Of a stretch of DNA of 64,000 bases, positions 54,600 through 56,691 are shown one piece after another. This DNA comes from a bacterium. GTDB taxonomy: Bacteria > Vulcanimicrobiota > Xenobia > Xenobiales > JADMJV01. The position numbers and the translations under genes are program-made. The notes beneath the pieces were generated by a model. That model ran no database searches. It was not told the origin of the DNA and worked only from the letters and a program-made list of their open reading frames with translations. The stretch's first letter is position 1, and every line of letters starts with the position of its first letter. Location: NCBI GenBank assembly GCA_018780265.1, contig JADMJV010000096.1, forward strand, positions 22,856 to 86,855, in the 5' to 3' direction.

Positions 54600-55100
54600 T
54601 CAGCAGGCTCCAAGATCGTAGACAAAGTCGCTGTCTCTGCCTATCAGCGGTTTGGGCACGCCCAACTGCTCGGAGATGATCTCTAGCAGGCGTTCCCACA
54701 CCTGGGGGCGAGTCCAGTGTCGGTCTGAGCCGGGTAGCTGCTCCCTCACCAATATCACCAATTCTCTGACGGTTTGGGGCTTGCAGGCCCAGAACGAGCG
54801 CGACGTCCGTAGGCGCTGACCCAACCGGTCTTCCAAATCTCTCCAGGGCACCCGGGGAAAGCCCCCCAACGGTCTCTCCAAAGTGATGTGGTGACGACTG
54901 ACTCCCGCCTCCATAAGCAGCTGTCGAATGGCTTGAAAGGCGGTTTGAGAAGCACAAGATTGTGGCTGAATCTGCAGCTGCTGGCAAACAAAATGGTCGA
55001 CCTGCCCTGGAGTGTTCAACGCGCCGGCCTGTTCATTGCTGATGCTAAGCTTGAACTCCGACTCTACAGCCATGACCAATTCCACCAAATCAAGTCCCAC
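54600..55100 (-). CDS. Circularly permuted acyl-carrier-protein-like protein lacking the Ppant serine
   Basis: N-term MGLDLVELVMAVESEF..ISNE = ACP helices II-IV; C-term IISEQLGV...DSDFVYDLG = ACP helix I/loop. Confidence 0.75.
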   Translation of the reverse strand: MGLDLVELVMAVESEFKLSISNEQAGALNTPGQVDHFVCQQLQIQPQSCASQTAFQAIRQLLMEAGVSRHHITLERPLGGFPRVPWRDLEDRLGQRLRTSRSFWACKPQTVRELVILVREQLPGSDRHWTRPQVWERLLEIISEQLGVPKPLIGRDSDFVYDLGAC

Positions 55101-55176
55101 TCTATAGAGTTCGCGAGTGGAGGATGAGCCCCCGCCCAGGGATGGCGCAGGATTTTCCAAGGGGCAGTCGCGAAAA

Positions 55177-55314
55177 GTTGAGACAGTTGAGCAAGCTCAG
55201 ACTTATCCTTAAGAATCAGAATCATATCCTGCGGTTGCTGGTTCGAATCCAGCCTCCCCCAGCTGAGGGGGAGTGGCGCAATTGGTAGACGCGGCGGGCT
55301 CAGACTATCTCAAC
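55177..55314 (+). ncRNA. Circularly permuted tRNA-like RNA 1 (YrlA/Y-RNA-like or permuted tRNA-CAT)
   Basis: T-arm GCTGG-TTCGAAT-CCAGC; acceptor CTCCCCC/GGGGGAG closed by AGCTGA; D-arm GCG-CAATTGGTAGA-CGC; anticodon stem GCGGG/CCTGC; outer helix GTTGAGA/TCTCAAC. Confidence 0.8.
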
Positions 55315-55327
55315 AAGCTTCTCATTA

Positions 55328-55480
55328 CCGTAGTCTTCGAATCGAACTCTCCGGGACCATAGCCTCAGATGCTGGTTCGAGTCCAGTCCCCTGCTCCACG
55401 CAGGGGTGGGCAAATGGCATGACAGTAGCTTTCAAAGTTTAGCCCGGCGATTAAATGCCGTCGAAGACAGATGATTGCGG
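55328..55480 (+). ncRNA. Circularly permuted tRNA-like RNA 2 (YrlA-like Y RNA)
   Basis: T-arm GCTGG-TTCGAGT-CCAGT; acceptor CCCCTGC/GCAGGGG closed by TCCAC; D-like TGGGCAAATGG; helices CCGGG/CCCGG and GTCTTCGA/TCGAAGAC, the latter overlapping a GTCGAAG motif. Confidence 0.75.
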
Positions 55481-55487
55481 CCAAACG

Positions 55488-55525
55488 AGGGCCCTCAGCT
55501 GGGTATGCTGGGGGCCTTCACCTTT
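55488..55525 (+). terminator. Hairpin likely ending the ncRNA transcript
   Basis: GGCCCTCAGC-TGGGTAT-GCTGGGGGCC followed by a weak T tract. Confidence 0.5.
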
Positions 55526-55584
55526 CCAGGATCTTTCAGGCACATGGGGAAGGATGAAAGCTGAATATACGTCTGGAGTCCACC

Positions 55585-56691
55585 TTGATAGGTAACGTCA
55601 ACACCGGCTACATCACGCCCCTTAACCTGACCGTGAGGGAACATCCCAGGCTCAAGGCCGACACCTTGAGCCCCGTGCCCCAAGATGGACTGAGCCAGGG
55701 TCTGGTCACCGAGAATATTCGCAAGCCCAACTTTTCCCCGGCTACACCGGCGGCTGTAGAAGCCGCTCCAGCTGAAGTCCCACAGGAGGCGAGTCCCAAA
55801 CCGTTGCCCACCATCGCCGATGAAAACCGCCTGCTCCAGCCCGGCACGGTGGTCTGGGAACTGCAGCCCGGCTGGGGACACAGCAAGGCGCGCACCCAAC
55901 AGGGCAAAGGTTATCCCGAACGACAACTGCCCCCCAATGGCGCCCAAAATTGGAATCAGGTCGACAAGAGTTACAATCCTGTTCCATATGAAGCTCCGGT
56001 GCTGGCCACCAAACCCGAGTGGGCCGACCCGCCCAGCATCCAGGAGACGCTGGCCAAGCGCGAGTTGAAGAGTTACGAAAAGCAACAGTTCGGCTCTGAG
56101 GGAGAGCCGCTCAATCCTAAAGGGCCCACCGGAATCACCGGTCGCGGCCTGCTGGGCAAGCACGGCGCCAACTTTGCGGCCGATCCTATCGTTACCCGCG
56201 TCAATCCCGACACCGGCAAACTGGAGATGATCGCCATCGTGCGCGAGGATCTGGGCCAGGTGGCCATCCCCGGCGGCATGGTCGACCACGGCGAGAAGGT
56301 GTCAGGAACACTGGCCCGAGAGTTGTGCGAAGAGACCTTAGGCAAAGAAGAGCACAGCAACGCCGGCGCCCAGGAGCAGAAACTTCAACAGATGTTTGAA
56401 CGGGCCACCCCGGTCTATCAAGGCTACGTGGACGACCCCCGCAATACCGACAACTCCTGGATGGAGACGCAAGCCTTTCACCTGCACCTGACCCCGGACG
56501 AGGCCAAAGAGTTAAACCTGCAAAAGGGCAGCGACGCCGCCCACGTGGAGTGGAAGCCGATCACTTCTGAATCGCTGGGCAAGATGTATGCTTCTCACGG
56601 CAGCTTCGTCAAGCAGGCGGTGCTGCTGTGGCAGCAAGACTCGGGCCTGATTTTGGGCAACGACGGTACGGTTGGGACGCCTCCCCGCTAG
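55585..56691 (+). CDS. NUDT9-like ADP-ribose pyrophosphatase (Nudix) with low-complexity N-terminal extension
   Basis: PLNPKGPTGITGRGLLG..GANFAADPIVTR, AIPGGMVD..E......RE..EE, YVDDPRNTDNSWMET, YASH. Confidence 0.88.
   Translation: MIGNVNTGYITPLNLTVREHPRLKADTLSPVPQDGLSQGLVTENIRKPNFSPATPAAVEAAPAEVPQEASPKPLPTIADENRLLQPGTVVWELQPGWGHSKARTQQGKGYPERQLPPNGAQNWNQVDKSYNPVPYEAPVLATKPEWADPPSIQETLAKRELKSYEKQQFGSEGEPLNPKGPTGITGRGLLGKHGANFAADPIVTRVNPDTGKLEMIAIVREDLGQVAIPGGMVDHGEKVSGTLARELCEETLGKEEHSNAGAQEQKLQQMFERATPVYQGYVDDPRNTDNSWMETQAFHLHLTPDEAKELNLQKGSDAAHVEWKPITSESLGKMYASHGSFVKQAVLLWQQDSGLILGNDGTVGTPPR

Follow-up and report, generated by a model that had tools for sequence, protein, structure and literature searches.

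We describe a small non-coding RNA, RNA1 (about 55186-55314, plus strand), encoded in a 64-kb stretch of bacterial DNA that is referred to here as the window. RNA1 has the design of YrlA, the bacterial Y RNA, a class assignment made purely on architecture to which we give a probability of about 0.8, and our verdict is that it represents a Ro-independent variant of this known class of tRNA mimics. It is built as a tRNA turned inside out, and this design is under clear selection. The locus is not a bacterial permuted tRNA gene, and RNA1 is non-decoding. To our knowledge, YrlA-type tRNA mimics have so far been defined and sought only beside Ro60 genes, and the roles proposed for them, as tether and gate for Ro60 and PNPase, presuppose Ro60. 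A mimic which is selected and represented in RNA libraries, which occurs in genomes without detected Ro60 and which has related modules in a second phylum therefore suggests a Ro-independent function and partner.

An earlier note had drawn attention to two segments, 55223-55261 and 55267-55300, the letters of which we found identical to its transcription. Joining them by coordinates with the downstream half placed before the upstream half indeed led ARAGORN to call a 73-nt tRNA-Met(cat) with the features that had been listed, namely U8, GG in the D loop, a 5-bp anticodon stem and the 7-nt loop CT-CAT-AT. The re-ordered product also contains a 7-bp acceptor stem, a 3-bp D stem, a 4-nt variable loop and a 5-bp T stem with the loop TTCGAAT, and one G-U pair lies inside the anticodon stem. 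The trinucleotide TCA was confirmed at both break points (55222-55224 and 55300-55302). In native order, ARAGORN called no tRNA in the whole window, and a search of the whole window against Rfam at gathering thresholds gave no match. Re-ordering yields the cloverleaf by construction: as the acceptor end of the RNA is closed and its anticodon end open, its parts follow one another as in a circularly permuted tRNA gene, and a cloverleaf consequently appears when the halves are exchanged.

All parts of RNA1 lie on the plus strand. The 5′ strand of the outer stem (GTTGAG, 55186-55191) pairs with 55309-55314 in a 6-bp helix found by RNAalifold, which shows two compensatory positions in the related genome G003 (ATAGAG/CTCTAT). 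The adjoining 5′ internal-loop region (55192-55227), which includes CATAT, carries CAGAC/AGAA-type repeats; no consistent pairing was found within it, and its AGAC-type motif is present in two to four copies per orthologue. The 5′ strand of the anticodon-stem equivalent (CCTGC, 55228-55232) pairs with 55294-55298 in a helix kept in G003. It is followed by the variable-loop equivalent GGTT (55233-55236), whose last T corresponds to U48, the partner of A15, and by the T arm (55237-55253; 5-bp stem and loop TTCGAAT), which was identified by ARAGORN, RNAalifold and covariation. The closed acceptor hairpin (55254-55273) consists of 7 bp with the 3′ strand at 55254-55260, the discriminator A at 55261, the loop GCTGA at 55262-55266 and the 5′ strand at 55267-55273. 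In an alignment (A3) of six modules, six of its seven pairs show changes on both sides, and the hairpin was also predicted independently by RNAalifold. Variants from RNA libraries at 55262, 55263 and 55266 all lie inside the acceptor loop. U8-G9, a D arm of tRNA-Leu type (3-bp stem, loop with GG) and the equivalent of position 26 occupy 55274-55293 according to ARAGORN and RNAalifold; the nearest genomic relatives of the downstream half are tRNA-Leu genes, with a near-identical D loop. The 3′ strand of the anticodon-stem equivalent (GCGGG, 55294-55298) precedes the final segment (55299-55314), folded by RNAalifold, which comprises the 3′ internal loop CTCAGACTAT and the 3′ strand of the outer stem (CTCAAC, 55309-55314).

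The minimum free energy fold of RNA1 alone was no better than those of shuffled sequences (z-score -1.2) and did not recover the tRNA arms, whereas the comparative RNAalifold fold of three orthologues recovered the outer stem, the T arm, the acceptor hairpin and the D stem. According to the proposed architecture, the flanks would pair in the 6-bp outer stem and then in a 5-bp helix in place of an anticodon stem, and would thereby hold a tRNA-shaped body consisting of the variable loop, the T arm, the acceptor stem with its 5-nt closing loop and the tRNA-Leu-type D arm. RNA1 would most likely be a stable tRNA look-alike handled by tRNA enzymes, and its non-tRNA flanks, rich in CAGAC-type repeats, may bind a partner other than Ro60. 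RNase P might cleave before 55267 and CCA might be added after 55261, a plausible but tentative expectation with somewhat less than an even chance, because RNA1 has a full 7-bp acceptor stem like that of the Mycobacterium smegmatis YrlA, for which RNase P cleavage and CCA tailing in vivo are described (PMC4201824).

RNA1 is accompanied by a tandem second tRNA mimic, RNA2 (55333-55468, plus strand), with a spacing of 134 nt from module start to module start. RNA2 comprises an outer stem (55333-55340/55461-55468) that covaries in G004, a T arm (55371-55387), an acceptor stem (55388-55394/55400-55406) with the loop TCCAC and a D arm (55409-55423). Its fold reached a z-score of -2.8, and pairs are restored by the RNA-library variants at 55410 (G>T) and 55427 (A>G). 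TCCA directly follows the acceptor 3′ strand of RNA2 in all three genomes that carry the cassette (G000, G003 and G004). Downstream on the same strand, folding revealed a terminator-like hairpin (55487-55527) of 13 bp with the loop TGGGTAT and a weak T tract behind it (-27.6 kcal/mol, z-score -3.9); its counterpart in G003 is followed by TTTTT. A consensus scan of 54900-55800 called neither a plus-strand promoter near RNA1 nor a terminator, the hairpin at 55487-55519 having come from folding instead. RNA1 and RNA2 are probably parts of one transcript that would end at this hairpin. A perfect 12-nt inverted repeat between the acceptor loop of RNA1 and the terminator hairpin is not kept in G003 and was treated as chance.

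Both RNAs are kept with compensatory changes in three of the six genomes of the genus; the cassette was not found in the other three. Among the six modules formed by RNA1 and RNA2 of the three genomes, all 72 of 72 pair cells are standard and compensatory changes occur in 7 of 12 pairs, and none of 500 shuffles equalled the observed percentage paired or the covariation score. The equivalents of the Levitt positions 15 and 48 are A and U in five modules of alignment A3 and G and C in RNA2 of G004. A covariance model, R1, built from the T arms and acceptor hairpins of the window's own modules, scored 79 bits on the RNA1 module (E about 7e-20) and likewise 79 bits on RNA2. The tRNA-like part of RNA1 is thus far beyond chance. 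The cassette (55189-55526) is the sole DNA conserved among the three genomes, with an identity to the congeners of only 70-80%, and conservation with G003 and G004 reaches 55525/55526. No conserved gene neighbourhood was found: the flanks in the three genomes share neither DNA nor protein similarity, and their Pfam domains are unrelated. On its own R1 is not specific, scoring 26-38 bits on junctions of adjacent real tRNA genes (for instance Gly-Thr and Gly-Cys in the RNA1 genome), and every hit was filtered with ARAGORN. One R1 match (L059) was rejected as lying inside a coding region.

Short RNA-library contigs (105-276 nt, several of them bounded by adapters) from four studies cover 55215-55481 at 95-99% identity, and therefore derive from close relatives. 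They are colinear with the genome, and none extends into the flanks of the cassette. The acceptor loop of RNA1 is read through by contigs X1 and X4 and that of RNA2 by X1 and X2, so that at least some molecules are uncleaved; none of the contigs starts at 55267 or ends at 55261. Contigs of four RNA runs contained no junction-joined forms, a count to be read in the light of the fact that contigs drop rare forms and cannot show ends. The uncovered parts of 55100-55600 were not accepted as RNA ends, nor was the contig end at 55358 common to runs X3 and X4, which adjoins a polymorphic site at 55359.

The earlier note had offered a recent tRNA-to-Y-RNA derivation as one of its two explanations. The kind of molecule was recognised correctly, as RNA1 has the YrlA layout and its best Rfam match is YrlA, whereas "recent" does not agree with compensatory conservation in congeners at 70-80% identity or with similar modules in another phylum. 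The match to YrlA (RF02553; search of 54900-55700) covers model positions 26-82, i.e. only the tRNA-like core, and at 25.1 bits (E 0.006) falls far short of the gathering threshold of 69; the flanking stem has no counterpart in the Ro-binding stem of the model. In a relative (G041), three YrlA-like RNAs located upstream of a TROVE gene were scored by Rfam at 37-39 bits, also under the threshold. R1 matched these RNAs with 32.6, 22.0 and 15.8 bits, and one match of 18.0 bits was obtained in G047. TROVE is present in 7 of 61 relatives. Searches for TROVE/Ro60 were negative for the 13 scanned ORFs that lie at 49.3-62.7 kb of the window, for the whole genome (97.4% complete) and for each of the six genomes of the genus. 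The motif GNCGAA is absent from RNA1, and its sole copy within 55150-55500, at 55460, belongs to the 3′ strand of the RNA2 outer stem. The defining stem-loops of YrlA are the T, the closed "AS" and the D (Chen et al. 2014, PMC4201824), and the likeness of YrlA to a circularly permuted tRNA has already been published (10.1101/312249).

The anticodon is the part of the re-ordered tRNA that did not withstand comparison. When the cuts in RNA1 were varied, ARAGORN called a tRNA in 184 of 400 combinations; the anticodon was CAT in 27 of these, and the remainder carried 20 other anticodon calls. With varied cuts in the orthologues, CAT accounted for 3 calls out of 206 in G003 and for 2 out of 120 in G004. 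In G003, CAT abuts the stem and is thus out of register, while G004 has neither CAT nor a loop, the helix being replaced by a longer continuous one. That the anticodon reads CAT is an artefact of where the cut is placed, and the anticodon, unlike the tRNA-like part, lies within chance; CAT would simply be whatever bases fall five before the stem. The downstream half contains a CTCAGAC of its own that matches the Leu(CAG) anticodon loop, and hence the two halves do not share one common anticodon.

These results bear directly on the other explanation offered earlier, a true circularly permuted tRNA(CAU) gene used in translation as a Met or Ile2 tRNA. Its transcript would close into a circle at the anticodon loop and, once RNase P and a 3′ nuclease had opened the acceptor loop, receive a CCA tail. 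The re-ordered halves do fold into a canonical cloverleaf in which CAT is flanked by U33 and A37, the best genomic match of the upstream half is the 3′ portion of one tRNA(CAT) gene (score 20 over 41 nt), and the genome encodes an RtcB ligase elsewhere, an RNase P RNA (280.8 bits) and three genes of the PolyA_pol/CCA-adding family. A search for ordinary CAT tRNAs, the check that the earlier note had named, however retrieved three, on contigs C58, C149 and C162, which leaves no decoding gap. The domain of the tRNA-splicing endonuclease (PF01974) was not found in the genome by a domain search that detected it in four archaeal control genomes. Moreover, neither G003 nor G004 preserves the anticodon loop, the halves carry different anticodon-loop signals, the RNA contigs contain no joints and three of the six congeners do without the cassette. 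According to PMC3978253, the permuted tRNA genes known so far require BHB motifs and the splicing endonuclease and had been reported only in algae and one archaeon; among the literature matches listed, there was no report of a bacterial one. We consider this explanation extremely improbable. A decaying, functionless remnant of two adjacent tRNA genes would account for the resemblance of the halves to different tRNAs (5′ half to Leu(CAG), 3′ half to a CAT tRNA) and for the cross-matches of R1 to tRNA-tRNA junctions at 26-38 bits, and Wang et al. (10.1101/312249) have proposed that YrlA originated from dimeric pre-tRNAs. Yet no complete flanking tRNA exists in the window, where ARAGORN found none, or in the orthologous loci L035, L036, L047 and L048. 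The two acceptor strands match each other perfectly and change in concert from genome to genome, as would not be expected of unrelated neighbouring tRNAs; the flanks covary too, conservation is seen in the cassette but does not extend to its surroundings, and the cassette is represented in the RNA libraries of four studies, so that a remnant appears highly unlikely.

A less remote alternative, although still an unlikely one, is a two-piece leucine-accepting tRNA-like RNA, in which the acceptor loop would be opened by RNase P, A55261 would receive a CCA tail, and the nicked RNA, equipped with the bacterial leucine identity set, would be charged for a non-decoding role by LeuRS, which in bacteria can do without the anticodon and without the long variable arm. 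The acceptor stem of RNA1 has 7 bp, as does that of the M. smegmatis YrlA cleaved by RNase P and tailed with CCA (PMC4201824). Charging with leucine would be consistent with the A15/U48 equivalents, G18G19 and the Leu-like D loop of RNA1, and with the discriminator A present in all Leu-type modules seen (G000, G003, G004, locus L049 of G006 and eight Myxococcota loci). Leucine identity in E. coli is conferred by A73, A15-U48, G18G19 and A20a, with neither the anticodon arm nor the long variable arm being needed (PMC9976931). NCCA is encoded right after the acceptor 3′ strand in RNA2 and in relatives in G006 and G008. Against this stand the lack of a contig end at 55261 or start at 55267, the two contigs that cross the RNA1 acceptor loop, the fact that RNA1 itself does not encode CCA, and the derivation of the leucine identity rules from E. 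coli and Aquifex rather than from the lineage of RNA1; in addition, most YrlAs are thought to remain closed (10.1101/312249). If this were true, RNA1 would be aminoacylated, non-decoding and independent of Ro; its companion would be RNA2, in which TCCA is encoded, and the tandem pairs of Ro-less Myxococcota repeat the design. Permuted tmRNA would then be joined by a second natural case of a bacterial RNA that comes from a permuted gene and matures to a charged tRNA-like molecule. The amino acid carried by two-piece tmRNA is alanine, and the alanine identity pair of tmRNA is G3-U70. RNA1 was rejected as a two-piece tmRNA on the grounds of its G-C third acceptor pair, of a standard one-piece tmRNA encoded on contig C153 and of weak local matches far below the thresholds (15.9 bits with tmRNA_permuted, threshold 47; 21 bits with cyano_tmRNA on G003, threshold 70). 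A Ro-independent YrlA-type mimic remains our preferred reading, and the locus provides concrete sequences for assays of leucylation, of CCA tailing and of cleavage by RNase P.

Modules of a similar kind, in several cases arranged as tandem pairs, are present in Ro-less Myxococcota and in another genus (g2) of the family of the RNA1 host. They have an identical T arm and share with RNA1 the closed, covarying 7-bp acceptor, the discriminator A, the short loop and the Leu-type D arm, a likeness of design from which no common descent is claimed. Two modules are present in 9 of the 17 loci examined, at 158-233 nt from start to start as compared with 134 nt for RNA1 and RNA2. Rfam gave no match at E<=0.1 on the five Myxococcota loci scanned, and TROVE was detected neither in the 61 genomes of the sampled family nor in the five genomes with loci L080, L084, L089, L097 and L100. 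Our literature search retrieved no relevant paper on tRNA-like small RNAs of Myxococcus. In contrast to RNA1, the D arm of the Myxococcota RNAs is followed by a complete anticodon-like hairpin, which places the ends of these RNAs at the variable region and not in the anticodon loop. Some of them possess a long variable arm, and their terminal stems (GCGCCCGG / CTCGGGCGC) differ from that of RNA1.

Among known systems, two-piece (permuted) tmRNA resembles RNA1 in having the T arm and the acceptor 3′ strand upstream of the acceptor 5′ strand, and differs from it at the third acceptor pair, where RNA1 has G-C and not G-U. The circularly permuted tRNA genes of Cyanidioschyzon, other algae and Thermofilum pendens likewise encode the 3′ half upstream of the 5′ half, and in their primary transcripts the acceptor stem is closed and the ends form the anticodon stem; as described in PMC3978253, they give rise to decoding tRNAs by means of a BHB motif, the splicing endonuclease and a circular intermediate. 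RNA1 differs from them in that no endonuclease was found, the anticodon is unconserved, the contigs contain no junction and there is no decoding gap to fill. From YrlA, whose gene is expected within about 4 kb of an rsr/TROVE gene on the same strand, RNA1 is set apart by the lack of such a gene in its genome and genus and of the motif GNCGAAN0-1G, which lies near the 5′ end of YrlA and is the proposed Ro contact. Its D arm is furthermore of the 3-bp tRNA-Leu type, whereas the Rfam consensus is of the GTAGCTCA type, and its non-tRNA part carries CAGAC-type repeats. The agreement with YrlA extends to the order of the elements (paired 5′ and 3′ flanks, variable region, T arm, closed acceptor hairpin and D arm), to the tRNA tertiary positions (U8, A14, G18G19, the T-loop and the covarying 15/48 equivalents) and to the 7-bp acceptor stem that RNA1 shares with the YrlA of M. 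smegmatis. Finally, as with YrlA, a second small RNA adjoins RNA1, apparently in the same transcription unit.

RNA1 (about 55186-55314), a small RNA that is tRNA-shaped although its parts are not in tRNA order, belongs to the YrlA-type tRNA mimics, a known class, as a variant independent of Ro. On the forward strand we read from the sequence an anticodon-stem equivalent from 55228 (5' strand CCTGC), the four nucleotides GGTT, a T arm with the loop TTCGAAT (55237-55253), the 7-nt acceptor 3' strand (55254-55260), an A directly 3' of it (55261) and a 5-nt loop. These are followed by the 7-nt acceptor 5' strand (55267-55273), which is complementary to 55254-55260, then TG, a D arm (55276-55292; 3-bp stem, loop containing GG), and finally G and GCGGG, which ends at 55298 and pairs with CCTGC. 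With the parts in this native order, neither a tRNA (ARAGORN) nor an Rfam match at curated thresholds was found in the whole window. Placing 55267-55300 ahead of 55223-55261 by script yielded a 73-nt tRNA-Met(cat) in ARAGORN, which bears out the sequence reading of the earlier note and every cloverleaf feature it listed.

The tRNA-shaped body of RNA1 is beyond chance. Its module is followed 134 nt downstream by that of a second mimic, RNA2 (55333-55468), and both have orthologues in two congeners, G003 (79.8% identity over 342 nt) and G004 (69.4% over 307 nt). Across the six modules, the T and acceptor stems contain standard pairs in 72 of 72 cells with two-sided changes in 7 of the 12 pairs; no shuffle out of 500 matched the pairing or the covariation score of the real alignment, and pairing fell to 37-60% when the partner columns were shifted. 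RNAalifold independently predicted the T arm, the acceptor hairpin and the D stem from the three RNA1 orthologues, together with a 6-bp outer stem (55186-55191/55309-55314) showing two compensatory positions. The equivalents of positions 15 and 48 are A/U in five modules of the alignment and G/C in RNA2 of G004; covariation of this Levitt pair was likewise reported for YrlA (Chen et al. 2014, PMC4201824).

The earlier note had proposed, as one of two readings beside a recent tRNA-to-Y-RNA derivation, that the re-ordered halves form a permuted tRNA, Met- or Ile2-like, with a CAT anticodon. The evidence does not support this reading, a permuted tRNA gene in a bacterium: the CAT anticodon is not beyond chance, and the 7-nt loop is a product of the chosen cut. 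When 400 cut combinations per module were scanned with ARAGORN, a tRNA was called for RNA1 in 184, with CAT in 27 and 20 other anticodon calls making up the remainder; CAT accounted for 3 of 206 calls in G003 and 2 of 120 in G004. Nor is the anticodon conserved: CAT stands directly against the stem in G003, and in G004 the helix runs on as a longer duplex and the loop is absent. The downstream half of RNA1 has its own CTCAGAC after the stem. This matches the anticodon loop of a tRNA-Leu(CAG) in the genome, and the 5' half of that tRNA is also the closest tRNA match to the downstream half; for the upstream half, the closest match is the 3' half of one CAT tRNA. The halves therefore have no single anticodon in common.

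Permuted tRNA genes are described for six algae and one archaeon, with maturation via BHB motifs, the splicing endonuclease and a circular intermediate (PMC3978253). A tRNA-splicing endonuclease domain was not found in the genome by a search that was positive in four archaeal control genomes. The genome does contain three ordinary CAT tRNAs (contigs C58, C149 and C162) among the 46 tRNAs counted by ARAGORN with -t alone (42 and a tmRNA with -t -m), which likewise speaks against a permuted tRNA. Metatranscriptome contigs from four studies contained no joints and were colinear with the genome, a weak point, as rare forms can escape contigs. Moreover, the cassette is missing from three of the six genomes of the genus, which would be odd for a tRNA required in translation.

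RNA1 probably shares a transcription unit with RNA2. Only 55189-55526 is conserved among the three genomes and the neighbouring genes are unrelated, namely an ACP-like fragment and a NUDIX gene beside the window's cassette, BatA/VWA genes in G003, and DUF7873, kinases and an OB-fold frame in G004. A 13-bp hairpin within the conserved part (55487-55519; -27.6 kcal/mol, z-score -3.9), followed by a short T tract that reads TTTTT in G003, would be the terminator of the unit. A perfect 12-nt inverted repeat joins this hairpin (55492-55503) to the RNA1 acceptor loop region (55258-55269); it is probably due to chance because it is not kept in G003. Upstream of RNA1, a divergent ORF on the reverse strand (54600-55160) matches PP-binding (acyl carrier) weakly (residues 156-184, E 3.3e-05), in a stretch confined to its C-terminal end and cut off by the stop codon. 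A second ACP-like stretch without Pfam match seems, by eye, to be present near its N terminus, long ORFs without Pfam match overlap it, and it may be a degraded gene.

The contigs from the four metatranscriptome studies span 55215-55481 at 95-99% identity, and one of them, X1 (55224-55481), runs through both acceptor loops. They are 105-276 nt long, several stop directly at the Illumina adapter, and none reaches the flanks compared (55100-55214 and 55482-55600), a hint, and only that, that their source is a small RNA and not DNA contamination. Variants fall in the RNA1 acceptor loop (55262, 55263 and 55266) or restore RNA2 pairs (55410 G>T, 55427 A>G), a placement expected of structured RNA.

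In RNA2, the loop TCCAC contains a discriminator T and an encoded CCA directly 3' of the acceptor 3' strand, and TCCA is kept in G003 and G004. As CCA is encoded in about 38 of the 46 tRNA genes by a crude check, RNA2 looks like the 3' end of one tRNA fused to the 5' end of the next. Its long stem contains a conserved bulge (GATTAAAYGCCGT) and ATCGAA, which may be protein sites. The unpaired flanks of RNA1 carry a CAGAC/AAGAC/TAGAC-type motif two to four times per orthologue (55192-55227 and 55299-55308 in the window; L002 and L003), one copy (CTCAGAC) lying directly behind the anticodon-stem equivalent. Such a repeated motif could bind a protein, and its recurrence explains the TCA which the earlier note saw shared at the break.

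Among 16 genomes of the family and 40 of the order, matches to R1, a covariance model of the window's T arm and acceptor hairpin, left after ARAGORN filtering non-tRNA modules only in the window's genome, G003 and G004 (74-80 bits) and in G006 and G008 of a second genus (32-42 bits). The RNAs of G006 and G008 have promoter-like and terminator-like signals and loops starting NCCA. Two of them (L037, 1440-1640, in G006; L058, 1440-1600, in G008) show sigma70-like promoters, a type-I D arm and a closed 7-bp acceptor with an NCCA-initial loop, and their T arm is preceded by an anticodon-like hairpin (loop CTGTTAA). L058 scores 26.8 bits with the Rfam tRNA model, and downstream of the L037 RNA lies a frame resembling, by eye, the end of a tyrosine recombinase. 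A further tandem pair in G006 (L049, 1501-1575 and 1684-1723) combines a module like RNA1, with Leu-type D arm and discriminator A, and one with a GC hairpin in place of the D arm and a loop beginning CCA, whose best Rfam match is tmRNA_permuted (26.8 bits, threshold 47).

When 185,579 species genomes were scanned for a pattern of the RNA1 T arm, a 17-24-nt gap and a Leu-type D-arm start, 32 loci were returned: 21 real tRNA(Gln or Lys)-tRNA-Leu junctions, G003 and G004, one tRNA fragment and eight loci in Myxococcota. The latter share a covarying closed 7-bp acceptor, discriminator A, a short loop and a Leu-type D arm. For seven of the eight, RNAalifold gave a terminal stem, an optional long variable arm, T arm, acceptor and D arm, and a complete anticodon-like hairpin of variable loop sequence; modules of the five loci scanned had no Rfam match at E<=0.1. 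In 61 sampled genomes of the Myxococcota family, R1 (E<=1e-7) gave 21 matches in 15 genomes, one match being a tRNA junction, which leaves 14 genomes. Seventeen loci re-examined contain 26 modules with standard pairs in 311 of 311 cells, and nine carry two modules spaced 158-233 nt. At one Myxococcota locus (L102:4001-4153), a real tRNA (RF00005, 41.7 bits) lies about 40 nt downstream of a closed-acceptor module and may share its transcript. TROVE was found neither in the 61 sampled genomes nor in five with pattern-scan loci; this genome is therefore not alone in having tandem closed-acceptor tRNA mimics independent of Ro. We met no description of such mimics in the literature covered, which excludes most subscription journals.

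The L-shaped body of RNA1 would be recognised by tRNA enzymes, as with Salmonella and Mycobacterium YrlA, and its non-tRNA flanks with the CAGAC-type motif would recruit another partner in place of Ro60. The genome has an RNase P RNA and genes of the CCA-adding family. Cleavage by RNase P before 55267 and CCA addition after 55261 are plausible, if tentatively so, by analogy with M. smegmatis YrlA, which has a 7-bp acceptor stem and undergoes RNase P cleavage and CCA tailing in vivo (PMC4201824). That the opened RNA1 would be charged with leucine is improbable. It has A15/U48 equivalents, G18G19 and a Leu D loop, every Leu-type module examined has discriminator A, and a minimal tRNA-Leu without anticodon arm is still charged (PMC9976931).

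The best Rfam match in 54900-55700 at permissive thresholds is YrlA (RF02553; 25.1 bits, E 0.006), which recurs in G003 (25.2 bits) and spans model positions 26-82, that is T arm, closed acceptor stem and D arm. YrlA is defined by T, 'AS' and D stem-loops and is modified by TruB and DusA (Chen et al. 2014, PMC4201824). RNA1 has the same layout, so what the earlier note centrally observed is already known for an established class; the likeness of YrlA to a circularly permuted tRNA is in print (10.1101/312249). R1 cross-matches junctions of adjacent real tRNA genes (26-38 bits; e.g. Gly-Thr and Gly-Cys in this genome), consistent with dimeric pre-tRNAs, the suggested source of YrlA (Wang et al., 10.1101/312249).

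The departures from YrlA concern the flanks of RNA1, which the Rfam model leaves unaligned, its D arm, a 3-bp tRNA-Leu type near-identical to that of the genome's own tRNA-Leu genes, and the link to Ro60. According to Chen et al. 2014 (PMC4201824), YrlAs were found up to 4 kb from a same-strand Ro60/Rsr (TROVE) gene and have a GNCGAAN0-1G motif near the 5' end. GNCGAA is absent from RNA1, its sole copy in 55150-55500 being in the 3' strand of the RNA2 outer stem. TROVE was detected in none of 13 ORFs scanned in 49.3-62.7 kb of the window, nor in the whole genome (97.4% complete) or the six genomes of the genus, but it was present in 7 of 61 relatives as well as in the controls (Deinococcus and Bacteroides). 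Nematodes have Y RNA homologues, the sbRNAs; two tandem matches to the sbRNA family RF01656 adjoin the TROVE gene of one relative (L023:1271-1410, G047; 35.7 and 27.2 bits, threshold 38) and therefore look like classical Y-RNA-type stems. Another relative with Ro, G041, carries three tandem YrlA-like RNAs directly upstream of its TROVE gene. These score 37-39 bits in Rfam (threshold 69) and 15.8-32.6 bits with R1, and Ro-linked and Ro-less RNAs therefore form one architectural class.
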